Source of the DNA: a virus
Length of the DNA stretch: 64,000 bases
Direction: 5' to 3' (one strand)
UHGV virus genome: UHGV-1351408
Below, one piece after another: positions 39,239 through 64,000 of the stretch. The stretch's first letter is position 1. Each line of letters opens with the position of its first letter. The notes under the pieces were generated by a model, which saw only the letters and a program-made list of their open reading frames with translations, was not told the origin of the DNA and did no database searches. The translations under genes were made by a program, and so were the position numbers.

Positions 39239-40855
39239 TCAACGTCTAAGCCCCTCATATGGGTTCCCTCTCACTAAGTCTGTGTGAGCACCCATTGATG
39301 GTGGCTTGAATAATTTAACTTCGTTAAGACTGTTGAAAGCATCACTGGTAGCATCCACTTGGTCATCTTTAGTTTTACCATCACCACAAAAGCCTTCAAG
39401 CTCTTGGAAGTAAGCTTCATTCCAGCTACCTCTCAAGACTTTTACAAGTCCAGCTTCAGAAGCAGCAGAAAATCCCGCAAAGCGGGTAACTTTATCTTTA
39501 TTTGTTGGTTTAGCTCTTGCGCGATAACCTTTCTCGGCAAGTTTCCTGATGAGGGATGTTGCATAGGATTTACCAGCAGCGCCTGGGTCTTGAGGGATAA
39601 AAATACCAGTTCGCTTACCGTCACTTTCAGCAGTCAAATTAATTTGTGTTTCGACTCCAGAGGGTCTATCTCTAAATCTTACTACATCAATGATATAATA
39701 GCAACCGTCTTTTTTAGATTTACCCATCTTAACACCCGCTGTCCAGTCTGGGTTAGGGTTAATTTCAGATGGTAAAGTCGCTGCTAAGTCCCATGCTCTG
39801 ACATCAAACACATCTTCTGGTAGTGAATCAACAATCTCACACCATTGTCTTTGCCAATAGTTTGAACCTTCTGCACGAGCCTTCCAGTTACCGAAACGAA
39901 GTCTTGCAACGTTTACAGGTGTGTTGTTTTCCAACTTACCACGATACTTAGGTTCCAAGAAGTCAAGAATTGGGTTATCATCAATCGTACCAGAGATGAA
40001 GGTGTATGTCTGAGGAATCTCAAGAGGGAACATTTCAAGAATCTTGTCTCTCTCCCAATCAGAAACCATCACACCATCATTCATAACATACCAACGAATA
40101 CGACCACATTTCTCAGGGTCTGGGTAACCTTCTTCATCTAAGAATGGCTCTACCCAATCATAAATGAAGTGGTCTCTATCTGGGTTCATAGAAATCTTCA
40201 TGTATGAATCCCCTTCAGCACCAGAACGTAGACGGGTCTGTAGGTATGAAATCTGTGAAGCTGAGAAGTGTGTACCTTCGTCAAAGTAAATAGCTGAGTA
40301 TTCAATACCCTGATGACCTTCAGCGTGCTTTTCAAGCTCTAAGTAGGTGAACTTAATAGTTGCCCCAGAAGGGAATGTGATAGTCATTTTCTGCTCGTGA
40401 GGAATCCCACCAAACTTACCAAATAGTTTCTTTGCAGCAGGCCATAAACCACCTTGTAACTGTGTTGTATTTCGACGGAAATATACAGCATTATAGTTAG
40501 GGTCTTCAATAAATCTTAAAGAGTCCATTAACAATGCAGCAGTTTTACCAGCACCAGCAGCACCACCATATAAAACCAAGTCAGCATTAGTATTTAAAAA
40601 CACCTCTTGAGAACCCGGTTGAGGGGCTACATAATTCTTATCAGTCATCAATTTGAAGATAAGTCTAACTTGGTCTGGTGTGTATCTTAATAAAGTCAGA
40701 ATTTGAGTTGGAAGGAATTTAGAGGGGTCTTTACCGAATGATTTGATAATTTCTTTTACTTCATCAGAAAGCCCCAACTCTCCAGCTAGGACTTTCCTAA
40801 CGTCTTCCACTCGCTTCTGCTTAACAGCATTTAAGTCCATTAAGCACCTCCGCAA
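39239..40855 (-). CDS. terminase large subunit
   Basis: 538 aa; Walker A LYGGAAGAGKT. Confidence 0.85.
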   Translation of the reverse strand: MRRCLMDLNAVKQKRVEDVRKVLAGELGLSDEVKEIIKSFGKDPSKFLPTQILTLLRYTPDQVRLIFKLMTDKNYVAPQPGSQEVFLNTNADLVLYGGAAGAGKTAALLMDSLRFIEDPNYNAVYFRRNTTQLQGGLWPAAKKLFGKFGGIPHEQKMTITFPSGATIKFTYLELEKHAEGHQGIEYSAIYFDEGTHFSASQISYLQTRLRSGAEGDSYMKISMNPDRDHFIYDWVEPFLDEEGYPDPEKCGRIRWYVMNDGVMVSDWERDKILEMFPLEIPQTYTFISGTIDDNPILDFLEPKYRGKLENNTPVNVARLRFGNWKARAEGSNYWQRQWCEIVDSLPEDVFDVRAWDLAATLPSEINPNPDWTAGVKMGKSKKDGCYYIIDVVRFRDRPSGVETQINLTAESDGKRTGIFIPQDPGAAGKSYATSLIRKLAEKGYRARAKPTNKDKVTRFAGFSAASEAGLVKVLRGSWNEAYFQELEGFCGDGKTKDDQVDATSDAFNSLNEVKLFKPPSMGAHTDLVRGNPYEGLRR

Positions 40856-40861
40856 ATAGAA

Positions 40862-41062
40862 TTATTCAGAGTCTGTAGCAGTCTCTTCTTTCTTAACTTC
40901 GAACTTTGCATCAACAGCATCAAGAAGTGCATCCATAGATGCCTCTTTAATATCAATACCTGTTGCTACAGATAATCTGTCTGCAATTGCCATGATAGTG
41001 TTCTGCATAAATTCTAGCTTCTTATTAGCTTCATAAAGTTCTTTATAAACGGTCTCACTCAT
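40862..41062 (-). CDS. hypothetical small protein
   Basis: 66 aa upstream of large terminase. Confidence 0.4.
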   Translation of the reverse strand: MSETVYKELYEANKKLEFMQNTIMAIADRLSVATGIDIKEASMDALLDAVDAKFEVKKEETATDSE

Positions 41063-43459: not shown

Positions 43460-43535
43460 TGGCGCAGGATAAGGGACTTGAACCCCTATTAACAGCTTCG
43501 TAGACTGTTGCTCTATCCATTTGAACTAATCCTGC
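43460..43535 (-). tRNA. tRNA-Arg(ACG)
   Basis: Acceptor GCAGGAT/ATCCTGC, loop CTACGAA. Confidence 0.7.
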
Positions 43536-43650
43536 TTACCTACGAGAACACCATACAGTTTTTCACAAACTTTGCTTTTACGTCTGTTTAGATATGACGC
43601 TCTAAACTTTTTTTGCAATTGACTTATTACTCATAGTGTTCTCCTAAAAT

Positions 43651-43728
43651 TGGTGTTCCAAGACGGATTCGAACCGTCACTAGTACAAGGTTTGAGCTTG
43701 CATCCTCTGCCAATTGGGATACTGGAAC
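43651..43728 (-). tRNA. tRNA with Leu anticodon CAA, short variable arm
   Basis: 78 nt; loop CTCAAAC; D-loop AATTGGCAGAGG; A73. Confidence 0.5.
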
Positions 43729-43729
43729 A

Positions 43730-43804
43730 TGGTACTCACTAAAGGACTTGAACCTTTTTCTTCATCTTGTAAGGGTGATGTTTTACCATATAAACTAAGC
43801 GAGT
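43730..43804 (-). tRNA. tRNA-Val(TAC)
   Basis: Loop CTTACAA. Confidence 0.5.
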
Positions 43805-43900
43805 GTGAAAGAGGTCTGAAGTTGTGCCACTAACTCAACTCCGTGGAATTTGTTACGGTCTTCAGTTGACTCAAAGTGGTCTTTCACTTGACCTCTGAAT

Positions 43901-43976
43901 TGGTGCTCCCACAAGGATTCGAACCCTGATAAGTTGCTTACAAGGCAACCGTAATAGCCAATTATACGATAGGAGC
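43901..43976 (-). tRNA. tRNA-Thr(TGT)
   Basis: Anticodon stem GTTGC/GCAAC, loop CTTGTAA. Confidence 0.7.
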
Positions 43977-43983
43977 ATTAATT

Positions 43984-44058
43984 TGGAGCATCCAGAGGGA
44001 ATCGAACCCTCAACCTCAGTTTGGAAGACTGTAATTTTCCCGTTTAAACTATGGATGC
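43984..44058 (-). tRNA. tRNA-Gly(TCC)
   Basis: Acceptor GCATCCA/TGGATGC, loop CTTCCAA. Confidence 0.65.
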
Positions 44059-44064
44059 ACTAAT

Positions 44065-44140
44065 TGGTGGAGTCACTGAGAATTGAACTCAGTTCCCAAG
44101 TTTGCAAAACTCGAATTTTAACCATATAAACTATGACCCC
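44065..44140 (-). tRNA. tRNA-Ala(TGC)
   Basis: Loop TTTGCAA. Confidence 0.6.
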
Positions 44141-44145
44141 AATTT

Positions 44146-44221
44146 TGGTACAGGTGGAGGGAATTGAACCCATCGTCTTACTGATTAAGAGTCAGCCGCA
44201 TAACCATTTTGCTACACCTGC
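44146..44221 (-). tRNA. tRNA-Lys(CTT)
   Basis: Loop CTCTTAA. Confidence 0.55.
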
Positions 44222-44228
44222 ATTAATT

Positions 44229-44305
44229 TGGTACACCTAGAGAGATTCGAACTCACACTGAGCAGATTCTAAGTCTGCTGCCTCTACCAATTGGGCTATA
44301 GGTGC
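44229..44305 (-). tRNA. tRNA with Leu anticodon TAG, short variable arm
   Basis: 77 nt; anticodon stem GCAGA/TCTGC, loop CTTAGAA; D-loop AATTGGTAGAGG; A73. Confidence 0.55.
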
Positions 44306-44560
44306 ATTAAATCTTTTTAGAGAACTTCTAAGAACCTAAGCAACAAGGTTCCACAACAAGCTGTAATAACCTTAGAAGCCCTCTAAAAAGACCTAATTTG
44401 GTCTTTGCATAGTCTTGTTTAATCCGGTGACTAGAACCTTTGGAGAGCTTGATATTATCTCTTCTCCGTGACACCTACTAGGTGCTTTATCAGTGTGTAC
44501 GACAATACACGAGGGATAAACCGAAAATGCGAGCAAGCATGGACGGTGTAAATCTTATTA

Positions 44561-44650
44561 GGCGGTAAGTAAAGGAGTCGAACCCTCACCGTATCTCTAC
44601 AGTGGCAACAGTTTTCAAGACTGTTTGGCTGCCATTAGCCGCTACCTACC
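44561..44650 (-). tRNA. tRNA-Ser(TGA), long variable arm
   Basis: 90 nt; anticodon stem ACAGT/ACTGT, loop CTTGAAA; 3' CC encoded, terminal A not. Confidence 0.6.
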
Positions 44651-44663
44651 CCTAATAAGACTT

Positions 44664-44746
44664 TGGCATGGGACGGAGGAGTTGAACCCCTTTGAAACGG
44701 TTTTGGAGGCCGTTGCTCATGCCTTAGAGTCTTAACATCGTCCCAC
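44664..44746 (-). tRNA. tRNA-like element, anticodon unassigned (CCA/Trp possible)
   Basis: 83 nt with good acceptor (GTGGGAC/GTCCCAT) and T-arm, but D/anticodon region does not fold canonically. Confidence 0.3.
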
Positions 44747-44888
44747 ATTATAATTCGAAGCTTACCGTATTATCTCAACACTGTAAAGCCCCTTCTCAGA
44801 TTATTTACATGTTCTGGAAAACATGAGATACAGACCACCTCCCTACAGGAAGACCCGCTTAGGTCGTCTAAGTAATCTGCTAACTAAT

Positions 44889-44965
44889 TGGCACACCCTA
44901 CAGGATTCGAACCTGTAACTAACGATTTAGAAGACCGTTGCTCTATCCAATTGAACTAAGGGTGC
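44889..44965 (-). tRNA. tRNA-Arg(TCT)
   Basis: Anticodon stem ACGGT/ATCGT, loop CTTCTAA. Confidence 0.7.
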
Positions 44966-45302
44966 ATTAATCTTTAAAGACTCTCTTAGAAAGCCCTTAA
45001 AGATGCCCACCTTATTAATCATACCGTGGGCTAGTACGCCAAATTCTTTGATGAGGGATTGGAATACCTCACTGGTGTTTAGCCTATCAAGCTACTGCCA
45101 GAAAAACATTGTCGTTTGCATTTATTTTAAATTTGCAAAATAGACGCTACGCAACGAAAACTATTCAGAATATGTACAACAAATTTCCCCACATTGTGTT
45201 ACGTCTAACGCTCATGTATTGGTGTTTGAATTATACATATTATGAATTATTTTTAGTTACTATAAAGTAGTCACATCTTAATGTCAACAACTTTATTGAA
45301 AT

Positions 45303-45378
45303 TGGTACTGGTAGGTGGAATCGAACCACCGATGTTCCCTTATCAGGGGAGTGTTATAACCTTCTTAACTATACCAGC
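45303..45378 (-). tRNA. tRNA-Ile(GAT)
   Basis: Loop CTGATAA. Confidence 0.6.
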
Positions 45379-45379
45379 T

Positions 45380-45456
45380 TGGAGGTTCAGATGGGAATCG
45401 AACCCACATTCATAGGGCTTATGAAACCCCTGCATTACCTTATCTGCGACTGAACC
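45380..45456 (-). tRNA. tRNA-Met(CAT)
   Basis: Loop TTCATAA; GGG/CCC run in anticodon stem. Confidence 0.55.
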
Positions 45457-45534
45457 ATAATAAGTACCCTAGTTAGAGAAACTGTTGAGTGGGTGTTTCC
45501 AGCCGCGCAGGTGTTTCTCAGTTAAGGGTGAATT

Positions 45535-45610
45535 TGGTAGAAGTGGAGGGATTCGAACCCATCGCCTGTCAGATTAAAAGTCTGCCGCATCACCATTCTG
45601 CTACACTTCC
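45535..45610 (-). tRNA. tRNA-Lys(TTT)
   Basis: Loop CTTTTAA. Confidence 0.6.
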
Positions 45611-45814
45611 ATTAAATTATCTTTGTAGATAAGCTACCCAGACTTGCTTAAGGTCTGTAGCGATGTGCCTTTTTGGGTTTAAATCTAGAATTTACCCTTT
45701 CACCCTTTGTGGTCGCATACTCACAGGTAAGCTTAATAACTTATCTACAAAGATAATTACCAGACCGTTGTTTATCATCTTAAGTGCTACCATTACACCA
45801 ACTCGACATCTGCC

Positions 45815-45838
45815 GAGTGAAGGAATCGAACCTTCGCC
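45815..45838 (-). other. isolated tRNA T-arm-like module (GAAGG-TTCGATT-CCTTC) without an acceptor stem
   Basis: Canonical T-arm, but no 5' partner for the would-be acceptor within 100 nt; lies inside a conserved-box spacer element. Confidence 0.35.
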
Positions 45839-46068
45839 TTTTCTTTACCGGAGAAATAGATTGTTTAAGTTTTGCTGTAAACGGTCTTCTGTAAATTTGT
45901 TGAGCCAGACCAAGTTTTAAATTTTTTCAAAATTAAATTGGCTTGAAAATATCATACGTACTTGCTGAATTTGGTCTTCTGCTCCTTTAAAGAATACTCG
46001 TAAGAACTCTTTAAGGGAGGGGCTAAATAGCCCTCTCAAAACATCATTTTGAAATACTTATTATAATT

Positions 46069-46145
46069 TGGCGGCTACGATGAGACTTGAACTCACATCA
46101 TCTCCCGTGACAGGGGAGTATTTTCTCCAGTTAAACTACATAGCC
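46069..46145 (-). tRNA. tRNA-Asp(GTC)
   Basis: Anticodon stem CTCCC/GGGAG, loop CTGTCAC. Confidence 0.7.
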
Positions 46146-46150
46146 TCTAT

Positions 46151-46238
46151 TGGTGTGCCGTGTAGGAGTCGAACCTACCGAGTCTCAATGACAAGGGATT
46201 TACAGTCCCCACCGCTACCATCTACGGGATAACGACAC
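46151..46238 (-). tRNA. tRNA-Tyr(GTA), long variable arm
   Basis: 88 nt; loop CTGTAAA. Confidence 0.7.
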
Positions 46239-46247
46239 ATTTTAATT

Positions 46248-46324
46248 TGGCGGTTAGTCAGGGATTCGAACCCTGTGCCATTCGCTTAACAGGCGACCGC
46301 ACATACCTTATGTGCTTCCTAACC
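46248..46324 (-). tRNA. tRNA-Asn(GTT)
   Basis: Loop CTGTTAA. Confidence 0.6.
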
Positions 46325-46400
46325 TTAATACATTACCAGACCGTGTTTTTCTTTTATCCGCAAAAAGTAGTTTGTTGCTGAATACGGTCTTCTGTAAAAT

Positions 46401-46477
46401 TGGAGGCGGGTGCAGGAGTCGAACCTGCCGATACCATGCTAATGAGACATGTGAGACGCCCTTTCTCTATACCCGCA
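46401..46477 (-). tRNA. tRNA with CAT anticodon (Met or Ile2)
   Basis: Loop CTCATTA; 1-72 mismatch. Confidence 0.45.
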
Positions 46478-46568
46478 ATTCTTAATGACCAGACCAAATC
46501 TCTTCTTTGTCCGATTTACCTTCAGATGAATAAGATTAAGTTTGCTGTAATTGGTCTTCTGTCAAAAC

Positions 46569-46646
46569 TGGCGTTCCAGAAGGGATTTGAACCCTCAGAT
46601 ATCCACTTTGAAAGAGTGGTGACTTTACCATTTTGTCTACTGGAAC
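46569..46646 (-). tRNA. tRNA-Glu(TTC)
   Basis: Anticodon stem CCACT/AGTGG, loop CTTTCAA. Confidence 0.7.
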
Positions 46647-46653
46647 ATTAATT

Positions 46654-46730
46654 TGGTCTCTGTTGGAGGACTTGAACCTCCGGCCTTACCGCCCCAAACG
46701 GAACGCTCTACCAAGCTGAGCTAAACAGAG
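46654..46730 (-). tRNA. tRNA-Pro(TGG)
   Basis: D-arm AGCTCAGCTTGGTAGAGC, loop TTTGGGG. Confidence 0.7.
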
Positions 46731-46848
46731 ATAAACTTTTCAAACTCTATGTAAACACTTTAACATTATTTTTTAGTGGTTGTCAAGAACTTTTTTAAAA
46801 TATTTTTCAGTATCTTAGAAAAGCTCTCATTTCGTTTCTATGTAGAAC

Positions 46849-46896: not shown

Positions 46897-48312
46897 TTAC
46901 CAGATGTAACGGTCAAGCATTACTGCTTTGAGCATTACGCTGATTGGGTCAAACTTCTCACCACCAAGCAGAGCTTTTAAAGTGGCTGGAGAGAACCCTG
47001 ATACCATTGCTACACCATTATCCTTAACAGATACTTCGCAAGTACCATTACGGTTTGCTAAGTACCAGAATACTAGTTGTGGCATTTCGTATCCAGCTTT
47101 TTTGTACTTACTCTGAATTGCTTCAAAGTTTGTACGACCATTTGCACCATCAACCTGATTAAACTCCATATCAGAGAAGATAATAAGCTTACTTGGCATA
47201 TCTTTCTGAGTCAAGTTGTTTCTCTTACCTGTTTCAAGAATGCGGTCAAAAGCTGCTTGTAAGTTAGTTGAGCCATATTCAACGTGTCGCATCACCTGAC
47301 GATGACGGTTTCGTAAATCACCACTCAGTTCGATGAAGTGAGGGTTTGTTGAATAAACCATTAACTCATTCTTAAAGCAACCTGTATTGCGTTCTGCTAC
47401 ATACAAGGCAAGTGATACACCAATATCCAGAGCAGTAATGGAGCCAAAATTCACCCAAGACATTGAACTTGATACATCAGACATACACAAGATGTTTTCA
47501 CCTTCTGCCATCCAGTTTGGTAGTGCTTTCCACTGCTCATTAGCAACATCTGCATTACCATACTTGACAGATTTAATCACATCGTATGGGTAAACAGCAC
47601 CAGCGTTAATCTTAGTCTCACCTTTTGATAAGGACTCGATGTAAGCTTTGTAACGCTCTCCATCTTTACGGTTAAACAGTTTTTGGTAACGTGCAGCAGC
47701 AAGTGAAGGAATCTTACTGTAGTCAATCTTACCAAACTCATTAGCAGAGATTTTTTGCTCAACTGTATCAGATAGTGCAGACAACAGTGTGCGGTACTCT
47801 TTCTCACTCAAGTTGGCAAACTTGCAGAAACGTTTTACAAACTGCTTATGACGTGGTTTGACTCGTGGCAACCACTTAGCCGCCAAACCTGCTGTTGCAG
47901 GGTCTAGTAATGCTGCTTCTAAATGTTTGAAGGCATCTGTCTCGAAACGAGTACCTACGAAGATTTTGAAGTCATCAAAACGACCAAGTTCTGCAATCTT
48001 ATCCATAATGCGAAGAACCTGCGTAGACTCTAAAACTTTGTCTTCAATTGCTTGAAGCAAAACAGTTCTGAAGGCTTTACGCTCACCCATACCTTCTCGT
48101 ACATCTCGCATATGAAGCAAAATACGAACTGCAACATCAACATCCTCACGCAAAGCTTTGTAGAACAGGTCTGGTAAGATTTCTACGTTGCTACGGCTTG
48201 AACCAGCAGCTTTGTAAAAGTCTACAAGAGCAGACATTGATGAAGTATGGTTTACAGCACCATTTTCAGTTCGACCTGCATGAAGGTGCGCATGTTTAAA
48301 TAATTCGCTCAT
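46897..48312 (-). CDS. vWA-domain protein with MIDAS motif (possibly Ro60/TROVE-like)
   Basis: 471 aa; helical N-terminal part; C-terminal vWA features: DxSxS (CMSDVSSSMS), later STN and FSDME. Confidence 0.6.
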   Translation of the reverse strand: MSELFKHAHLHAGRTENGAVNHTSSMSALVDFYKAAGSSRSNVEILPDLFYKALREDVDVAVRILLHMRDVREGMGERKAFRTVLLQAIEDKVLESTQVLRIMDKIAELGRFDDFKIFVGTRFETDAFKHLEAALLDPATAGLAAKWLPRVKPRHKQFVKRFCKFANLSEKEYRTLLSALSDTVEQKISANEFGKIDYSKIPSLAAARYQKLFNRKDGERYKAYIESLSKGETKINAGAVYPYDVIKSVKYGNADVANEQWKALPNWMAEGENILCMSDVSSSMSWVNFGSITALDIGVSLALYVAERNTGCFKNELMVYSTNPHFIELSGDLRNRHRQVMRHVEYGSTNLQAAFDRILETGKRNNLTQKDMPSKLIIFSDMEFNQVDGANGRTNFEAIQSKYKKAGYEMPQLVFWYLANRNGTCEVSVKDNGVAMVSGFSPATLKALLGGEKFDPISVMLKAVMLDRYIW

Positions 48313-48393: not shown

Positions 48394-48765
48394 TTATTTT
48401 TTGAGAGTCGCTACAGCAGAGAACGTTGGTTTGTTATCTGTCTGTTGTTGACCACCATTATCAGGAGTCTTCTTAGTGTCTGCTGCAAGTGCTTTCATCT
48501 CACCTGCTGAGTGAGTAAAGATAGTTTTACCGACCTCAATCATACTCTTGATGGTTACGTCATCTGTGTTTAACCCGAACTCTGCAAGCTTAGCCGCGTC
48601 CCTTGTAACAATCGCCTCAAACAGCTTTGCAGCGAACTCAGCAGAATTATCAATGGTCAGTTGAGCTTTTACGAGCGAGCTTTTGTTACGAGAGCCTTTT
48701 GGTCTTCCAGATGGGTTTCCAGACTGGCCTTTTTTAAACTGGCCTTTGTTTGTTCTGTTTTTCAT
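48394..48765 (-). CDS. hypothetical basic protein with AT-hook-like GNPSGRPKG motif
   Basis: 123 aa. Confidence 0.5.
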   Translation of the reverse strand: MKNRTNKGQFKKGQSGNPSGRPKGSRNKSSLVKAQLTIDNSAEFAAKLFEAIVTRDAAKLAEFGLNTDDVTIKSMIEVGKTIFTHSAGEMKALAADTKKTPDNGGQQQTDNKPTFSAVATLKK

Positions 48766-56607: not shown

Positions 56608-57156
56608 ATGGAAAAAGATAACTTAAAAGATGTTGAAGGTAACTACCTAGTACTTGACTGGAGTGATATCCGAGAAGCACTCTCCGAAGAAAGCCTTGAC
56701 CTGCTAGAGCAACTTATCTTCTCAGTACGCCATACCAGAGGTATTGTAAATGGTAAAGAACCATTAGAAGGAATCTTTGTAGAGAAGTCTTATCCGTTCT
56801 ATGAAGACACTTTACAGAAAGTTAAAATCTACTTTAGACAGAAGAACCGTAAAGTGGTCACTATGGTATCTCTTGGTGGACAGAGTATGTCTGTGATGGA
56901 AGATATCAACCCTAAGAGACCGAGTAAAGGTGTTTGTATAAAAATCACAGGTCATGAAGAGTATATCTCAGTGGATGACTTTAGCTCATTCTGTAGTGGT
57001 TCTTGTGTCTTTAATGGTTTTCACTATGATATCCGAGTGTACCCAATCAAGGGAGATGATATCATGATGCAGGTATTCGATAATAACAATGGATTTACTC
57101 ATTTTTATCAGACAACCAAGTCATCATTAAAAACAGTTCTTGAAACACTGATTTAA
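56608..57156 (+). CDS. hypothetical protein
   Basis: ORF 56551-57156; start uncertain (56551 or 56608). Confidence 0.45.
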   Translation: MEKDNLKDVEGNYLVLDWSDIREALSEESLDLLEQLIFSVRHTRGIVNGKEPLEGIFVEKSYPFYEDTLQKVKIYFRQKNRKVVTMVSLGGQSMSVMEDINPKRPSKGVCIKITGHEEYISVDDFSSFCSGSCVFNGFHYDIRVYPIKGDDIMMQVFDNNNGFTHFYQTTKSSLKTVLETLI

Positions 57157-57166
57157 AATATCTTAA

Positions 57167-57195
57167 GAGCCTCCTTAATCGGGGGCTTTTTAATT
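57167..57195 (+). terminator. rho-independent terminator ending the plus-strand block
   Basis: AGCCTCC-TTAATC-GGGGGCT followed by TTTTT. Confidence 0.55.
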
Positions 57196-57199
57196 TTTA

Positions 57200-58758
57200 T
57201 AAAATTTTATCGGTTGTCCCAACCTCTGGGTCACCATCATATGTGAATAAGATATCTACCCTTCTTAATAGCCTTCTTAATCTTACTCTCTATATAGTTA
57301 TATAGTACTATACAGTATCTTAGTAACTATCTAGTGGTCTTAATAGCCCTCTGTATAGCCCTTCTAAACACTCTTCTAACAAGCCTTCTTAACAGCCTAT
57401 ACAATCACCTTAACCGTACCTCTACACCCTCTTAGAAGCCCCTATACACCTCTTAATCTCTATGTCAGCTATGATACCCTCTATATGTGTTCACTAGGGA
57501 ATACTAAGCCTCTATATAGACTGTTTTAACAAACTTAACAGGAATATCTTCACAGACCTTATCTCACAAGGTCTAACACGGTACTAACAAGGTATCTTAT
57601 AAGCCTGTTTATGCCTGTATTTTTAAAAGACTGTATAGGTAATTATTCAGAATTTTAAAATTTTTATAAAATAGGACTATCAAGTCATTTTTTAGGGTCT
57701 TTGAAGGAACTGAAAAATATCTGTAGAAGATGTATATCTGCTTGGTAGCCCTTAACATCCCTGTAACATCCCCTTTGCAGAATTTTAAAATATCATTAAC
57801 AATCTCTTAACAGCTATTACATTCTCTTAACATCTCTTCAGAGGTCTTAACAGATTCTTAACAGAACTAACAAGGGTGTAACAAGTTCTTAACAGTCAAT
57901 ACATGGTCTTTATAGTTTCTTAACAGATGACTAACAATAGCTAACAAGTTAATTTTTAAGAGTTATTTTGTAGGGATTGGTAACAATACCAATTAAGATA
58001 ATTAACAAGTTTCTAACAAGTGTTTAATCTTTTTAACAAGCTATTAACATGGTCACTATCTCTTTTCTTATCATTCCCTTTCCCTCTTAGTGATTCTCTA
58101 AATAGCCCTCTTAAAAGCTCTCTATAGCTCCTTGTAAGCTCTTTTAAGCCTCTTCCTAGTAGTTACACCCCAACTGTACAGACACCTTTTTATAGGGCTT
58201 TACAGGGGCTTTAAAGGCTATGTCAAAGGTTCTTACAAGGCTTTTACGTGGTCTTAACAGAGATTTAACAAGGGGCTAACAAGTTGCTAACAAGTGCCTT
58301 AAAAGCATAACTATGTAGGGATTGTTAAGAAATTGTTAAGAAAATGTTAAGGGGGCTAGCATTTACGTAACTTTTAAGCTATCTATCACGTAACTTTGAA
58401 GTAACTTTATAGCCCCTATAACATACTTTTTAGTGACTATCAAGGGGATTGTTTAGTTATTCACAAGATACTAACGAGATAATAAAGCTCACACCCTTAT
58501 AAGATTCTTTTAAGCCTCTATAAAGCCCTGTAAAGAGCTTTTAAGGGTGAGTTAATGCAATCCCTTAAGTTAGATTGATAAGGCTGTTATAGCGCTTTAT
58601 AGAGCGTTTAAGTGGGCCATCCCCTTTCTGGGGTTATTGGCTTATATTTAAGTTGATTTGATAAAAGGCTATAGAGTAGACTATAGAGTTATTGCTTTTA
58701 AGGTCTGATAAGATTCTGAAAAGGTGAGGAAAGGGATTGTATAAGGATTGGATAGACG
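57200..58758. repeat. 1.6-kb non-coding iteron-rich region (more than 25 TAACA(A/G)G copies, both orientations) with an AT-rich tract
   Basis: Dense runs at 57790-57960, 58010-58050, 58250-58300, inverted copies TTGTTAAG at 58320-58350; AT-rich 57290-57340; no ORF of 60 aa or more. Confidence 0.6.
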
Positions 58759-58782
58759 TAAAAAAGCCCCTGTGAGGGGCTG
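58759..58782 (-). terminator. rho-independent terminator ending the 58.8-64 kb minus-strand block
   Basis: AGCCCC-TGTGA-GGGGCT with T-run on minus strand; second hairpin GGGGCT-ATTT-AGCCCC at 58796-58811. Confidence 0.55.
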
Positions 58783-58821
58783 TATAAAGGTATCTGGGGC
58801 TATTTAGCCCCGTTGCGTCGA

Positions 58822-59070
58822 TTAGTTGTAACCTTGTTTATTGTAGTACAGTGAGACAATCAAGTCACCCCAGTAATGATAGTGATGCTCATCGTTTAAT
58901 GCCTCTTTTACAGCGTCTTTCCAGAAGTCATCAGTAGGGTTATAATCTGGGATAACTTGCTTGATAACTGTCTTCACTAATGAAAAGCATTCATCAGTTC
59001 CACCGATATCAAATTTAACGTCCAGAGTATAACAGCCATAAGCATTGACAGTTGCGCGGATAGTTGCCAT
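58822..59070 (-). CDS. hypothetical small protein
   Basis: 82 aa; preceded by type-A cassette. Confidence 0.5.
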   Translation of the reverse strand: MATIRATVNAYGCYTLDVKFDIGGTDECFSLVKTVIKQVIPDYNPTDDFWKDAVKEALNDEHHYHYWGDLIVSLYYNKQGYN

Positions 59071-59139
59071 TTTCAGAATCTCCTAGTTTAAGGACTTTAT
59101 TTAGTGGGGAAGGTCATTCCCTCCCCGTTGATTAGTAAT
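59071..59139 (-). promoter_or_regulatory. type-A intergenic cassette (8-bp hairpin GGGGAGGG/CCTTCCCC + CACTAAATAAAG + SD)
   Basis: Minus-strand read ...CAACGGGGAGGGAATGACCTTCCCCACTAAATAAAGTCCTTAAACTAGGAGATTC...ATG. Confidence 0.5.
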
Positions 59140-59403
59140 TTACTGCATGTTGGCGTATGTTGCAAGCCTTTTTTCGTTGTATTTTGTCAGAATCTCACAA
59201 GATAAAACATCATATTTTGTAACCGCTTTGCCTTTGTCGAGGTCAAAGAATCCGAACGCTTTACCGTCTTTGAATCCGACAACTTCGTAAGATTCTTTAA
59301 CGATTTCACCATTGAACAAATCGCTTTCGATGCGGTGAAACAGTGCTACGTCTTCTTTGTCAGTTGCAATTTGTAAAAGTGTGGTCAGCTCGACGTGTTC
59401 CAT
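59140..59403 (-). CDS. hypothetical small protein
   Basis: 87 aa; type-A cassette upstream. Confidence 0.5.
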   Translation of the reverse strand: MEHVELTTLLQIATDKEDVALFHRIESDLFNGEIVKESYEVVGFKDGKAFGFFDLDKGKAVTKYDVLSCEILTKYNEKRLATYANMQ

Positions 59404-59468
59404 TTCGAATCTCCAGTTTAGGATTTTATTTAGTGGGGAAGGTCATTCCCTCCCCGTTGATTGACAAT
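59404..59468 (-). promoter_or_regulatory. type-A intergenic cassette
   Basis: Near-identical to 59071-59139. Confidence 0.5.
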
Positions 59469-59999
59469 TTACAGATTTTTGATTGTCTCGTCAATGTCTT
59501 TTTCAATATCTTTTAAAGTTTTTTCTAAGTTCTTGATATTGAACGTTAAACCTTCTCCCAGTGTCTTAGAGTAACCGCTAGGACGTAAATCATAAAGCTC
59601 GATTTCTTCCACTAGAGAAAGGTTAACAGCCCAGCCACCTATGCCGTAGGCCATTGAAACGGTATTTACAGGGGCTTTATAGAACTTGTTCAAGGACTTG
59701 ATAGAACGTTCATAAGCCATTTTATAACCATTTAAAAGGTTTTTAACGTGGTTGTGAACGTTTTTACAATCATCTAAGTAAAGACCTAAAAACATCGGGA
59801 GAAGTTCCGCGACAGCTTGCATAAAGTGAGAGACTACAACGGTGGAAACATTGCGACGATGGACGTAATAAGCCCCGTTTTCTGATTTGGTAATGGTTGC
59901 AAAGTGTACACCATTGCAACGAAATTCATAGGTATCTTTAACAGGCTTTGACATTACAGCATTTGAACGAATGAAGTTGATAGCTTGAAATTTGTTCAT
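59469..59999 (-). CDS. hypothetical protein
   Basis: 176 aa; type-A cassette upstream. Confidence 0.5.
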   Translation of the reverse strand: MNKFQAINFIRSNAVMSKPVKDTYEFRCNGVHFATITKSENGAYYVHRRNVSTVVVSHFMQAVAELLPMFLGLYLDDCKNVHNHVKNLLNGYKMAYERSIKSLNKFYKAPVNTVSMAYGIGGWAVNLSLVEEIELYDLRPSGYSKTLGEGLTFNIKNLEKTLKDIEKDIDETIKNL

Positions 60000-60075
60000 T
60001 TTAGAATCTCCAGTTTAGGACTTTATTTAGTGGGGAGGTTATTGCCTTCCCGTTGATTAGTAATTTACTTGTTTT
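60000..60075 (-). promoter_or_regulatory. type-A intergenic cassette (variant hairpin)
   Basis: GGGGAGGTTATTGCCTTCCC variant; followed by 145 bp extra spacer containing a TTGTCAAG motif at 60147-60167. Confidence 0.45.
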
Positions 60076-60219
60076 GATAGCTGATTGCAAGCAATTTTTT
60101 AAGTTTATCTATAAAGAATCTTTTAAGTGAATCCCTTTTAGATAAACCCCCTCGAACAAATGTACTATTGTCAAGGGGTATCGTCAAGTAATTTTTTAAA
60201 GTTTTTTATAAGTTATTGA

Positions 60220-60561
60220 TTAACTGATGAATATTTTTTCAGGCTTTACATAGCTGATACGCTGACTTTTTAGCAGGTCATCCCAGATTAGCGCGGCAAT
60301 ATGAGAATAGCCGGATTCACGTAAAAGTTTCATTGTTTTACTTCTCGTCTCAAAGCGGCTTGCGTAGTATTCACTGTTCAAGGTTGTTTTATTCCCTTCG
60401 TTGTCTGTATGGATGATTTGCATCACTTGAAAGGGGCTTACATCCTCACCTTTGTTCCACTGCTCAAAGTATTTTAGGCACTGCATAGGTGATATCTTAT
60501 CACTTACTTGAGTTGACCAAGATGAACCCTCTTTATCAGTAATTACAGTTACATAAGCCAT
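60220..60561 (-). CDS. hypothetical protein
   Basis: 113 aa; type-A cassette upstream. Confidence 0.5.
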   Translation of the reverse strand: MAYVTVITDKEGSSWSTQVSDKISPMQCLKYFEQWNKGEDVSPFQVMQIIHTDNEGNKTTLNSEYYASRFETRSKTMKLLRESGYSHIAALIWDDLLKSQRISYVKPEKIFIS

Positions 60562-60650
60562 TTTAGAATCTCCAGTTTAGGACTTTATTTAGTGGGGAAG
60601 GTCATTCCCTCCCCGTTGATTGACAATTTACAGATTTTTATCAGGCTTGT
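60562..60650 (-). promoter_or_regulatory. type-A intergenic cassette
   Basis: Identical core to 59404-59468. Confidence 0.5.
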
Positions 60651-60884
60651 CTAGTCTTTTTCAATGATAATTTCATACTGACCATCTACGCTGTCAAAAT
60701 AGACACCATCTTCATCTTCTGTCTTAAAGTAGCATTGAATATCATCACTGGCGGGATAGTCTTGTCTTGCTATCTGGCAAACTTGAATAGCATTTTCTTT
60801 ACTCCCTGTAAACTCCTCAAGCCCTTTAAAATCACATGAATGACCATTACAAATAGAAAGGATAAGATAAACGGTTGTAAGCAT
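60651..60884 (-). CDS. hypothetical small protein
   Basis: 77 aa; no conserved cassette upstream, only a GGCCC-TGTAT-GGGCC hairpin. Confidence 0.45.
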   Translation of the reverse strand: MLTTVYLILSICNGHSCDFKGLEEFTGSKENAIQVCQIARQDYPASDDIQCYFKTEDEDGVYFDSVDGQYEIIIEKD

Positions 60885-60947
60885 GATTTAAGCCCTTTAA
60901 ATGGCCCTGTATGGGCCTTAAGTTGGAAGTTGGTGTCTTTGTACTGA

Positions 60948-61511
60948 TTAACCTAAAAAGTCTTTTAAATTGCGCTCTGTGATGTTTGCCGTGATTTTAT
61001 CCAACAAGTCACAAAACACGGAACTATCACCGCTATTCTGTACAATTTTCGCCATACTTAACAAATCATCGTCAACATAGCCTAAATTGCGGTTAGTTGC
61101 ATCTGGTACAAAGAAAGGTGCATACATCGCACTAAATTTCGTCGAGTGAAGGCCAATAATCCAACCTTTATCAAAGTGTCCGGTAAAGCTGGCGATATCA
61201 CTCATGTTGTCACAAGAATAATCATCCTCTAGCTCTTCCTCTGGGATATCCATCTCAATGACAATTACGTCCTGCGTTTCCATTTGGAAAGCTGCCGTAA
61301 TAAGCCCAGATTCTAAAGCGTTTTGAATGCAGCGTTCACGAATGTAAGAATCTTCCTCATCTTCCAGACATTCCGTTTTGATAATCTTGTTCATTGGGTA
61401 AACGTAGAAACAATCATCCATGTATGAGCAGTTCCAGATTCCTTCCGGCTTGTCGCCACCATTCAGCAGGTTTACAAAGTTTTTGATGGTAGTTCCGTGA
61501 TAGCATTTCAT
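60948..61511 (-). CDS. hypothetical acidic protein
   Basis: 187 aa; type-B cassette upstream. Confidence 0.5.
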   Translation of the reverse strand: MKCYHGTTIKNFVNLLNGGDKPEGIWNCSYMDDCFYVYPMNKIIKTECLEDEEDSYIRERCIQNALESGLITAAFQMETQDVIVIEMDIPEEELEDDYSCDNMSDIASFTGHFDKGWIIGLHSTKFSAMYAPFFVPDATNRNLGYVDDDLLSMAKIVQNSGDSSVFCDLLDKITANITERNLKDFLG

Positions 61512-61596
61512 TTTTGAATCTCCAGTTTAGGATTTAGTGGTAAAGCTCTTTATCTGGGGCTTACTTTATCGAACTATAAGCCCCTTGTAAAGTACT
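61512..61596 (-). promoter_or_regulatory. type-B intergenic cassette (hairpin GGGGCTTA..TAAGCCCC flanked by AAAGTACTTTAC / AAAGAGCTTTAC direct repeats + SD)
   Basis: Minus-strand read ATAAAGTACTTTACAAGGGGCTTATAGTTCGATAAAGTAAGCCCCAGATAAAGAGCTTTACCACTAAATCCTAAACTGGAGATTC...ATG. Confidence 0.5.
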
Positions 61597-61845
61597 TTAT
61601 TTAACTTTTTTTGAGAAAATTAGTTTAACTGCAACTGTAGGAATCTCGTCAGCGGTTGTAACCAGCATTACTTTTTGAGTGACCAACTTATAACCGTTCT
61701 TTGCAGCGTATGCGGTAAAACGGTTGACATTGTAACTATAAGTTTTTGGTGTGTTGTCTGGCATGTGGTAAAGAAAAGGTTTACCCAAGTTTTCTTCTTG
61801 TGTCAATAGTCGGCAGGTATCAGGGACATTGAAATAGTTCATCAT
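61597..61845 (-). CDS. hypothetical small protein
   Basis: 82 aa; type-B cassette upstream. Confidence 0.5.
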   Translation of the reverse strand: MMNYFNVPDTCRLLTQEENLGKPFLYHMPDNTPKTYSYNVNRFTAYAAKNGYKLVTQKVMLVTTADEIPTVAVKLIFSKKVK

Positions 61846-61937
61846 TTTTTAATCTCCTAGTTTAAGGACTGTGTAAAGCTCTTTATCTGGGGCTTAAGAT
61901 ACCAACTTTTTAAGCCCCTTGTAAAGTACTTTATTAC
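61846..61937 (-). promoter_or_regulatory. type-B intergenic cassette
   Basis: Hairpin GGGGCTTAAGATACCAACTTTTTAAGCCCC. Confidence 0.5.
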
Positions 61938-62135
61938 TTAATTTTTGACAACTTTTAAAACTGCAAGATAACCTAAGCAATAAGAATCACCGAAGAGAGT
62001 TCTACCCATGAAAGAATCCTCTTTGATATCCTTTGCAGTGACAGTTTTTTCTACGCCGTGGGAAAGGACTACATCACCAACTTTGATATCTTTGATGTGT
62101 GTTGTTTCAATGGTTAAGCCGTTAATAATAGCCAT
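61938..62135 (-). CDS. hypothetical small protein
   Basis: 65 aa; type-A cassette upstream. Confidence 0.45.
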   Translation of the reverse strand: MAIINGLTIETTHIKDIKVGDVVLSHGVEKTVTAKDIKEDSFMGRTLFGDSYCLGYLAVLKVVKN

Positions 62136-62210
62136 TTTAGAATCTCCTAGTTTAAGGACTTTATTTAGTAGGGAGGTTATTGCCTCCCCGTTGATGAGTA
62201 ATTTAATCTA
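62136..62210 (-). promoter_or_regulatory. type-A intergenic cassette (variant)
   Basis: GTAGGGAGGTTATTGCCTCCCC variant hairpin. Confidence 0.45.
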
Positions 62211-62235
62211 TCTAAAAATCAGTGTCAACATCTTT

Positions 62236-62640
62236 TTAAAGTTCTGCGTAGATTGCATCACAGACATCACGGAAATCATGATTTGTTAAGTTACGTTGTA
62301 ACCAAGTGGCAAAGAAATCAGCGATTGCAAAATTAGCGTCATACTCGACGGATAGCCACACTTTAACAGCAAATCGGAACATCTTTAAATCAAGCTCTTT
62401 ATTCATTACCTTTGATTTGCCTAACATGTCGGCCATCTCATGTTGTGCACCGTCTAGCGTGATACCGGCTGCAACGTCAGCCAATGAGTTTTTTACGCTT
62501 TCAACGTCTAAGATAATACTTTGAATCTTCCCAATAATGTTTTGCAGTGTTTCATCTGGTGCTGATGATGTGATAACATTAATCCGGTTGACGGTCAAAC
62601 GTGCTTTTAAGATAGATAACTCACGATTATTAATAGCCAT
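62236..62640 (-). CDS. hypothetical protein
   Basis: 134 aa; type-B cassette upstream. Confidence 0.5.
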   Translation of the reverse strand: MAINNRELSILKARLTVNRINVITSSAPDETLQNIIGKIQSIILDVESVKNSLADVAAGITLDGAQHEMADMLGKSKVMNKELDLKMFRFAVKVWLSVEYDANFAIADFFATWLQRNLTNHDFRDVCDAIYAEL

Positions 62641-62725
62641 TTTTGAATCTCCAATTTAGGATTTAGTGGTAAAGCTCTTTATCTGGGGCTTACTTTATCG
62701 AACTATAAGCCCCTTGTAAAGTACT
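62641..62725 (-). promoter_or_regulatory. type-B intergenic cassette
   Basis: Same hairpin as 61512-61596. Confidence 0.5.
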
Positions 62726-62998
62726 TTATGCTAAATGCAGCTTTTTGCCTTTTACTATGATGTAACTTGATGCGCTATTGCCGCATACATCTTGATAAAT
62801 TCTACGCAAACGGCCTTCGTAGTATACTTTCCAGCTAGTTGGAATCTTTTTCCCGTATCCGGTAGCAGTTTTTTGGAATCCTGCAAGTTGCCAATCCAAA
62901 ATGTGCTGTTCAGCTTGTAAATCCTCGAAGTGCATTACACCGTTTACATAGTGGCGTAGGGTTACGTTTAAGGTGCGACCGTTGTTAGTAGTGTACAT
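62726..62998 (-). CDS. hypothetical small protein
   Basis: 90 aa; type-A cassette upstream. Confidence 0.5.
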   Translation of the reverse strand: MYTTNNGRTLNVTLRHYVNGVMHFEDLQAEQHILDWQLAGFQKTATGYGKKIPTSWKVYYEGRLRRIYQDVCGNSASSYIIVKGKKLHLA

Positions 62999-63075
62999 TT
63001 TTGAATCTCCTAGTTTAAGGACTTTACTTAGTGGGGAAGGTCATTCCCTCCCCGTTGATTAGTAATTTACTTGTT
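62999..63075 (-). promoter_or_regulatory. type-A intergenic cassette
   Basis: GGGGAAGGTCATTCCCTCCCC hairpin. Confidence 0.5.
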
Positions 63076-63088
63076 TTTAAAACTAAAA

Positions 63089-63421
63089 TCAAGAGAAATT
63101 TTTTCGTTTGTTCAGTTCTTGGACAATTACAGTGTAATAGTCTTTTAAGTCACTGATATTTAAAGCATTTATCAGAGAGTTATAATCATCGACAAGCTGA
63201 AAATTATCTTTGAAAATGTCGCTGATTTGATAAGTTTTTGATTGAAATCTGAAGCTCATTTCTAACCGTTTTATTTGTTCATCACTTAAACGCTCCAGAA
63301 AGCTCATTACAAGGCTATTATTAACCTGTTGCGTGATTGCCTTACTTGCCAAATTATATGCGCTATAAGCCTTGTACAGTGCTATAATGGCAATGATTGC
63401 AGTGATACCCATCATTAACAT
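63089..63421 (-). CDS. hypothetical membrane protein
   Basis: 110 aa; N-terminal TM segment MLMMGITAIIAIIALY; overlaps upstream gene by 7 nt. Confidence 0.5.
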   Translation of the reverse strand: MLMMGITAIIAIIALYKAYSAYNLASKAITQQVNNSLVMSFLERLSDEQIKRLEMSFRFQSKTYQISDIFKDNFQLVDDYNSLINALNISDLKDYYTVIVQELNKRKNFS

Positions 63422-63711
63422 GGTGCTTCCTCTTTACGTGATACTTTGCCATTTAAAGTTATCTCATAAGACTCTAGTAAATCACTTTCAGACTTAACAG
63501 GACTTTTACAAGTATCATCATAAACATTAATTTGCAATACAGGCTTTTTATACTCCCTGCAACTATTCCATAAGCAAATCACTACACGACGGCCTTTTAT
63601 TTTGCCGTGTAACCATTCCATAACCTCATGAGTATTTCTTGAGGTCTCGATAAAATCGATTTTGTTGAGTAACTTGCTTAGATTTTCCCTAACTTTATTT
63701 GATAATTTCAT
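63415..63711 (-). CDS. hypothetical protein
   Basis: 98 aa; type-B cassette upstream. Confidence 0.5.
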   Translation of the reverse strand: MKLSNKVRENLSKLLNKIDFIETSRNTHEVMEWLHGKIKGRRVVICLWNSCREYKKPVLQINVYDDTCKSPVKSESDLLESYEITLNGKVSRKEEAPC

Positions 63712-63799
63712 TTTTGAATCTCCAGTTTAGGATTTAGTGGTAAAGCTCTTTATCTGGGGCTTAAGATATCAGCTTTTAAGCCCCTTGTAAAGTACTTTA
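63712..63799 (-). promoter_or_regulatory. type-B intergenic cassette
   Basis: Hairpin GGGGCTTAAGATATCAGCTTTTAAGCCCC. Confidence 0.5.
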
Positions 63800-64000
63800 T
63801 CAGATTAAATTGCCAGTTAATGATAAGTGCATTTTATAGCCTTTTTTGGTAAAAACGTTCACTTTACCCAGTGTTTTTACACCTTTAAAAAGGTTGTTTG
63901 AACTGCGTTTTAAAGTTAACTGCTTATCAACCTTCACGCCCCACCTTACAGCAGATTGTTTCCCGTTGTCAATCACTTTCCCGCATAACTTTTTAGCCAT
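63800..64000 (-). CDS. hypothetical small basic protein
   Basis: 66 aa; start codon at the last three bases of the window, so upstream region unseen. Confidence 0.45.
   Translation of the reverse strand: MAKKLCGKVIDNGKQSAVRWGVKVDKQLTLKRSSNNLFKGVKTLGKVNVFTKKGYKMHLSLTGNLI

Follow-up and report, generated by a model that had tools for sequence, protein, structure and literature searches.

What might a stretch of some 1.6 kb without genes, crowded with copies of one short motif, be doing between two converging gene blocks of a phage genome? The question is raised by the UHGV virus genome UHGV-1351408, of which a stretch of 64,000 nucleotides (hereafter, “the window”) was analyzed, and in which positions 57157-58821 (1665 bp) are non-coding, lie between convergent terminators, and are rich in the pentamer TAACA. 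The original prediction, made from the letters of the window alone, had read these copies as the iterons of a replication origin in the first place, and had named a terminase-binding pac region or a genome-end repeat array as alternatives. Comparison with related phages favours the alternatives: the last of them turned out to be correct as to what the element is, as the dense core of the region, 57744-58356, matches the direct terminal repeat (DTR) of relatives down to the nucleotide, and the first of them, terminase binding, is the most likely function. The reading as a whole, in which the region would be a junction containing a DTR, cut by terminase at its boundaries and carrying the TAACA arrays as a landing pad for packaging, is one in which we place considerable confidence.

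Matches to the 1.6-kb region occur in 256 phage records; those that rank best, with identities of up to 93%, all come from Felixounavirus, and the more distant ones from Mooglevirus and Suspvirus. Going by these matches, the window comes from a Felixounavirus, that is, a Felix O1-like myophage. It is the physical layout of the matching records that carries the argument. In GenBank, at least 12 records of related phages have an end that lies no more than 2 nt from 57744 or 58356: for ECP2307, pEP20, NBEco004 and E9, the record starts or stops at 57744, and for GE_vB_7A at 57746, and 58356 is the starting point of the records of ZX4221, Ro111lw, CRP22, D4, I14.1, NBEco005 and Citrobacter phage HP1 (a Mooglevirus whose record carries a repeat_region annotation). 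The repeat is annotated in two records, that of HP1 and that of Salmonella phage UAB_69, the DTR feature of which aligns to 57742-58358, and among the matches listed, nine records show a match at both of their ends. The same sequence is seen, exact, at both ends in two relatives, namely, vB_EcoM_I14.1 (PP892526; oriented by PhageTerm, PMC11737134), whose 581-bp repeat at both record ends aligns to 57744-58356, and Erwinia phage M7, with 444 bp.

Published work on relatives points the same way. PhageTerm analyses gave DTRs of 613 bp in Ro111lw (PMC6454146), 581 bp in Pr103Blw (PMC8303462) and, in another report, 439 bp (PMC8928762), and the 608-bp DTR of UAB_Phi87 was established by the Bal31 sensitivity of two restriction fragments and run-off sequencing, with no heat-sensitive cos fragments being present (PMC4837284); the same study reported a Felix O1-like DTR cluster of terminases, and short terminal repeats had already been inferred for Felix O1 itself by Whichard et al. 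The termini are fixed in independent isolates, with no circular permutation, and a headful pac site or a cos site was rejected on the grounds that the ends are exact and fixed in relatives and that UAB_Phi87 lacks cos fragments. By homology, then, 57744-58356 is the counterpart of the exact DTR of Felix O1-like phages, found in a single copy in the window because assemblies collapse the two terminal copies, and, since this dense core coincides with the physical chromosome ends of relatives, the 1.6-kb region is, as far as sequence comparison can tell, a concatemer junction composed of a left flank, one collapsed copy of the DTR and a right flank. In virion DNA, the left flank (57191-57743) would lie just inside the right genome end, and the right flank (58357-58764) just inside the left one.

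The identity of the element per se is already known, it being annotated in GenBank relatives and mapped experimentally in UAB_Phi87. What the literature searched gives, however, is the length of the repeat only; no account was found there of the 11-bp phased TAACA architecture, nor of the inverted boundary elements or their conservation across the Ounavirinae, so that the architecture of the repeat and its link to a small terminase, both set out below, appear to be undescribed.

The repeat sits in untranscribed DNA where two gene blocks meet, with convergent terminators, no conserved open reading frame (ORF) and promoter-like sites at chance level. The absence of ORFs of 60 aa or more, claimed at the outset, holds for the whole of 57157-58821 (zero found), and the description of the region as lying between converging plus- and minus-strand blocks bracketed by terminators is accurate as well, each block being closed by a terminator hairpin (57165-57190 on the plus strand, 58781-58765 on the minus strand). 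Three small ORFs inside the region (33, 49 and 35 aa) are interrupted or without start codons in related genomes; hidden small genes were considered and rejected, the 49-aa and 35-aa ORFs being broken in relatives and the 49-aa one being, moreover, an ORF that the genome end would split. In every annotated relative, the homologous stretch is either unannotated or a “hypothetical” gap, with the small-gene block of the Felix01p049 side on one side of it and the p050-side block on the other, and it is flanked there by convergent terminators as well. A promoter cluster was likewise rejected, as a sigma-70 scan returned 11 sites against 7.9 +/- 3.3 expected, most of the matches arising from the resemblance of TTAACA to TTGACA, and so was structured RNA, as an Rfam scan of 57000-59000 (E up to 1) returned two sub-threshold chance matches only.

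Within the 1665 bp, TAACA occurs 29 times on the plus strand and four times inverted; for the plus-strand count, 1000 shuffles of the region that preserve its dinucleotides give 2.88 +/- 1.64 (10 at most). The original prediction had put the count at more than 25 copies of TAACA(A/G)G, which stands for the 5-bp core and does not for the exact 7-mer, of which there are only 12, all on the plus strand; TAACA(A/G) is found 23 times. The spacing of 10-11 bp that it had described was borne out (13 adjacent copies at that distance versus 0.01 expected), and the three inverted copies (TTGTTAAG, TTGTTAAG and ATGTTAAG) are indeed present at 58322-58351, two of them being intact in all nine of the genomes compared and the third in seven of the nine. 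The phasing is a property of more than the exact motif: in Fourier analysis, the 1.6 kb are sharply periodic at 11.0 bp throughout (power of 8.3 versus a median of 2.1 for windows elsewhere), parts without an exact TAACA core included, and the output of Tandem Repeats Finder contains sixteen rows of short arrays, some of which overlap, whose periods are 8-12 bp. The left flank has a periodicity of 11.5-11.75 bp, enriched k-mers and 86% column identity across ten genomes; for the right flank, the periodicity is 11.0 bp, with k-mer and tandem-repeat support.

Two further repetitive features may be mentioned alongside. The second-strongest 11-bp periodicity of the window (power of 6.6 against the same median of 2.1) lies outside the non-coding region, at 59401-60013, in and between small genes. 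There is also an exact 14-bp duplicate, CAGAATTTTAAAAT, at 57648-57661 and 57778-57791, the outer copy lying 83-96 bp outside the left boundary of the repeat and the inner one 34-47 bp inside it, within a block conserved across genera.

When ten genomes of three genera are aligned, the most conserved parts are the two boundaries. Both boundary blocks are invariant across the three genera, the left one from 57731 on in all ten genomes, with 57730 varying in Sf17, and the two boundaries, read on opposite strands, both contain TAGCCC(CC)TTAACA and are inverted near-copies of each other, GCCCCCTTAACA on the right corresponding to GGTAGCCCTTAACA on the left; on the plus strand, the right boundary reads ...TTGTTAAGAAATTGTTAAGAAAATGTTAAGGGGGC/TAGC (the slash marking the presumed cut). 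Motif columns are 92% conserved as opposed to 80% for the other columns of the repeat, and a permutation test of motif sites against random 5-mers (mean identity 82%) yields P = 0.0015 overall and P = 0.0035 when restricted to cross-genus comparisons. Of the 25 TAACA sites that the repeat contains, 16 are preserved intact in every one of the nine other genomes (for array A, 11 of 18 copies), and array B has 4-6 copies in other genera. Between genera, the non-coding region retains 77-79% nucleotide identity versus 68-76% for the neighbouring genes, and the adjacent 82-aa protein has 48-64% amino-acid identity in phages whose repeat is up to ~90% identical. Across the three genera aligned, the TAACA layout and the boundaries are conserved more strongly than either the spacers or the flanking genes, and, as judged from these comparisons, the boundaries and the TAACA sites are shown to be under sequence-specific constraint.

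Judging by its motifs, the architecture of the repeat extends to a fourth genus, Kolesnikvirus: one half of the terminal repeat of Erwinia phage M7 is densely filled with TTAACA and the other half with TGTTAAG, the left boundary of that repeat is recognizably related to the one in the window, little else aligns, and the flanks of the repeat contain short repeats of their own (CTTAGAAG). The junction of Escherichia phage mistaenkt (Suspvirus) is 79% identical to the Felixounavirus sequence and has 35% GC in a group for which a genome of 47% GC has been reported, which would mean that either the composition of the junction has been kept constant or an exchange of the region has taken place between genera.

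In the mechanism proposed here, replicated genomes would form head-to-tail chains with one copy of the repeat at each joint, and terminase would recognize the junction and cut at the conserved boundaries, between 57743 and 57744 and between 58356 and 58357; repair synthesis would then duplicate the 613 bp between the cuts, leaving a copy at both ends of each packaged genome. T7, too, is packaged from concatemers, and the duplication of its terminal repeat by repair synthesis has been proposed. The enzyme expected to cut at the boundaries is the large terminase (TerL, 39239-40855), and the inverted boundary elements would fit a single nuclease working in opposite orientations on opposite strands. 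Some 25 TAACA copies, phased at 11 bp, would point inward from the left boundary and the three inverted ones inward from the right, together making up what may be a multivalent landing pad for an oligomeric DNA-recognition protein. The short repeats are, in any case, more likely to be signals for DNA packaging than a replication origin, and we infer that the TAACA sites and the boundaries would be recognition and cutting signals of terminase.

The protein docking on this pad would most probably be a small terminase (TerS), and the best candidate for it is the 123-aa DUF5681 protein encoded at 48394-48765. The original prediction had proposed this protein for binding assays, an apt pick given where its distant homologues are encoded. 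It has an AT-hook-like N-terminal arm, GNPSGRPKGSRNK, with the invariant N-terminal motif F-KKG-SGNP-GRPKGS-N, and homologues with 50-59% identity are known from Pectobacterium phage Wc4-1 and from contigs of 85-92 kb. Of the six distant homologues examined, four are followed directly downstream, with an overlap or a gap of 4 nt, by the gene of a large terminase (two of these being identified by Pfam matches and two via PHROGs, E = 5e-72 and 2e-99), and the remaining two are on short, uninformative contigs. As this is the classic position of a small-terminase gene, DUF5681 probably represents a family of TerS proteins, in which the member from Felix O1-type phages would have been displaced from TerL. 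Only the large terminase was found in Felix O1 by Whichard et al., the small one being reported absent (2010), and no description of a small terminase of a Felixounavirus was found in the literature searched. A bolder and decidedly tentative version of this proposal is that the ~25 TTAACA sites form a wrap-around docking array for DUF5681 as an unrecognized TerS family, with the GNPxGRPKG arms of a ring-shaped oligomer each entering successive TTAA minor grooves; if true, it would supply the “missing” TerS of the Felix O1-like phages and provide the first explained function of short-repeat arrays at a T7-type terminal repeat.

The surroundings of the two terminase-related genes deserve a brief description. 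The DUF5681 gene lies upstream of a Ro60-like gene and a presumed tRNA cluster; the former encodes a 471-aa protein (46897-48312, minus strand; DUF2828 and DUF7788, phrog_850 “RNA-binding protein”) and adjoins that presumed cluster at about 43500-46800, and a homologue of the protein was called Ro60-like, and its gene a counter-defence gene, in the Bas63 study. Directly upstream of TerL, in the usual small-terminase position, there is a 66-aa ORF (40862-41062, minus strand; phrog_4397, with no function assigned) that received no family annotation and is a possible alternative or additional packaging partner of TerL.

Several points weigh against the reading given above. The end coordinates for this phage are taken from relatives that are 88-94% identical, and each boundary has been reported at two positions 2 nt apart, depending on the source (57742 or 57744; 58356 or 58358). 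The offsets of the cuts relative to the inverted boundary element also differ by about 2 nt between the two sides, which makes the picture of symmetric nicking an approximate one. As for the candidate TerS, its gene is 7.5 kb away from TerL and does not adjoin it, its AlphaFold model (a disordered basic N-terminus and a helical hairpin) is moderately confident (pLDDT 67), Foldseek found no significant structural relative of that model in the PDB, and sequence searches against PHROGs, NCBIfam and PDB give the protein no function, the order of genes around its homologues being the one informative signal. The link between TAACA and a protein is a hypothetical one, and we know of no established function even for the analogous arrays of T7.

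Of the other readings, the one that survives best, and is still unlikely in our estimate, is that a phage or host initiator binds the TAACA copies as its iterons, with the AT-rich tract as the unwinding element (57618-57700, or the 57290-57340 segment singled out originally), be it instead of the genome end or besides it. There are, after all, many same-strand, helically phased short repeats beside a tract of 14-21% GC, in DNA that has no genes and is under purifying selection, and at the T7 junction the promoters phiOL and phiOR, which also act as replication origins, are annotated beside the junction, so ends and origins can be neighbours. AT-rich DNA is, however, also usual near phage ends and terminators, and 57290-57340, although moderately AT-rich (27.5% GC), is not the strongest such segment of the region, 57618-57700 being the one that falls to 14-21% GC. 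The repeats themselves fill the terminal repeat and flip their orientation at its right boundary, which fits the recognition of an end better than an origin, and their unit is a 5-7-bp core phased at 11 bp, whereas initiator-binding iterons are typically 17-22 bp. In the eight flanking proteins, no Pfam domain was found, be it that of an initiator or any other (an initiator that is unrecognizable being possible), there is no conserved ORF inside the region, and most relatives lack the two DnaA-box matches (TTATNCACA, at 57242 and 58457). The region lies where transcription converges, with promoter-like sites not above chance, and GC skew only mirrors gene orientation and has no bearing on an origin. 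Nothing that was tested supports the origin favoured at first, with no initiator-like gene at its flanks, no conserved DnaA boxes and no iteron-like unit, although the region may conceivably serve as one in addition.

Quite improbable, in turn, is an element for handling the genome ends apart from terminase, the arrays binding a virion or early protein that would shield the incoming ends against host exonucleases, make DNA ejection pause, or synapse the two repeats when concatemers form. The arrays do lie at the very ends of the injected DNA, paused DNA ejection has a precedent in the injection-stop region of T5, and the window is devoid of Chi sites; that a RecBCD inhibitor is lacking in this phage group is noted in the Bas63 study. 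Such an element nevertheless has no candidate protein and no precedent in the Felix O1-like group, the boundary elements, inverted and highly conserved, speak for a system of nuclease recognition, and the gene order around DUF5681 favours a terminase over an end-handling protein. Least of all would we credit structural DNA acting independently of any protein, in which the 11-bp phasing would produce intrinsically curved or superhelical DNA that helps the first or last segment of the genome to engage the portal or to spool in the capsid, and TAACA would be kept for its shape. The 11.0-bp periodicity does run through all of the 1.6 kb, including parts without TAACA, but specific 5-7-bp cores, and not just composition or phase, are retained across four genera while the spacers vary, which is the signature of sequence-specific recognition.

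Table 1. Features of the proposed concatemer junction and the terminase-related genes (positions in the window; a slash within a sequence marks the presumed cut).
Feature	Position	Strand	Details
Intrinsic terminator of the left-hand gene block	57165..57190	+	T run after a stem of 10 bp; a terminator is annotated here in Barry and Moogle, too
Left unique non-coding flank	57191..57743	+	Degenerate repeats of CTTCTTAA or CTATA type phased at 11-12 bp; six TAACA copies
Most AT-rich tract	57618..57700		14-21% GC; 45-125 bp outside the left repeat boundary
Left-boundary block	57729..57757	+	GATGTATATCTGCTT/GGTAGCCCTTAACA; presumed cut between 57743 and 57744
DTR homologue	57744..58356	+	613 bp; densest part of the repeats
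Array A	57753..58049	+	18 same-strand (C/T)TAACA(A/G)(G) copies, mostly 11 bp apart or at multiples of ~10-11 bp
Central part of the repeat	58050..58254	+	Degenerate phased units of 10-12 bp (AGCYC..., TANAGGG...); no exact TAACA
Array B	58255..58292	+	Four TAACA(A/G)G copies exactly 11 bp apart
Inverted trio TGTTAAG	58322..58351	-	11 bp apart; abuts the right repeat boundary; 95% tandem-repeat matches
Right-boundary element	58343..58360	-	Minus strand reads GCTA/GCCCCCTTAACA; presumed cut between 58356 and 58357
Right unique non-coding flank	58357..58764	+	ACGTAACTTT, TTTAAG and TATAGAG repeats phased at 11 bp
Intrinsic terminator of the right-hand small-gene block	58765..58781	-	From hairpin scan; annotated in Barry and Moogle
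Large terminase (TerL)	39239..40855	-	Pfam Terminase_6N and Terminase_6C; phrog_979
Candidate small terminase, 123-aa DUF5681 protein	48394..48765	-	Pfam PF18932, E = 2.3e-14

Beyond the junction, the minus-strand gene block at 59057-63817 contains families of near-identical intergenic cassettes of 40-90 bp, with 3-6 copies each (e.g., ...GAATCTCCAGTTTAGGACTTTATTTAGTGGGGAAGGTCATTCCCTCCCCGTTGATT...). They are set between the small genes beside the genome end, and probably represent ribosome-binding-site/terminator/promoter units reiterated within an early gene block; for Felix O1, Whichard et al. listed repeats of a similar kind, 57 bp and 39 bp in size. Some of the public records that came up also call for a remark. 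PP892526 (89 kb) is filed under Tequintavirus, yet is Felix O1-like over the ~2.7 kb compared at its two ends, with an 82-aa protein 98.8% identical to that of the window, and “Staphylococcus phage SA1” (GU169904, 147 kb) contains Felix O1-like sequence, which suggests that it is a chimeric or contaminated assembly.

With the chromosome ends placed at 57744 and 58356, this genome can be given its proper orientation and annotation, and a copy of the repeat can be put back at either end. Getting the ends right is of consequence for phage rebooting and synthetic assembly, for the interpretation of coverage peaks, and for assessing the transduction risk of these phages, which are widely used in therapy and biocontrol. 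The advance is an incremental one and not surprising, and the conserved array, together with the DUF5681 candidate, offers a testable model of how the packaging site might be recognized in a myophage with exact terminal repeats.

How, then, does this junction compare with the systems that are already known? The DTRs of Felixounavirus and other Ounavirinae are the same element, 88-94% identical, in the same position between the same gene blocks, and with the same boundaries and TAACA layout. Their lengths are 608 bp in UAB_Phi87, 618 bp in UAB_69, 613 bp in Ro111lw, 581 bp in Pr103Blw and I14.1, and 444 bp in Erwinia M7, and they differ only in copy number and spacers (e.g., array B has four copies here and 2-6 in relatives).

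Outside this group, short-repeat arrays at exact terminal repeats have a precedent in T7, the junction of which was examined: its 160-bp repeat has 13 CCTAAAG copies on one strand in and beside it, and in eight cases the gap from one TAAAG core to the next measures 13 bp. What the two share is a short, exact, non-permuted repeat and a 5-7-bp core present in many copies, in one orientation and at a fixed spacing. They are, however, unrelated in sequence, and the repeat here is about four times longer, with arrays that lie mainly inside it, a spacing of 11 bp instead of 13 bp, and an inverted trio at one of the boundaries; the flanking genes here point towards the ends and there is no evident promoter at the junction, whereas T7 has its early promoters as well as phiOL and phiOR there.

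The R sites of lambda cosB and the pacL/pacR of SPP1 follow the same logic as the one proposed here, i.e., phased short sites for an oligomeric TerS beside the place where TerL cuts, but those phages have cohesive or headful permuted ends and 3-7 sites, as compared to the ~25 found here, for which binding is proposed only. Iteron origins (plasmid and phage oriV, lambda ori) share with the junction the tandem same-strand repeats near an AT-rich tract, and differ from it in the size of the unit and of its core, in that the junction has neither an adjacent initiator gene nor conserved DnaA boxes, and in that the site occupied by the TAACA repeats is that of the genome ends.

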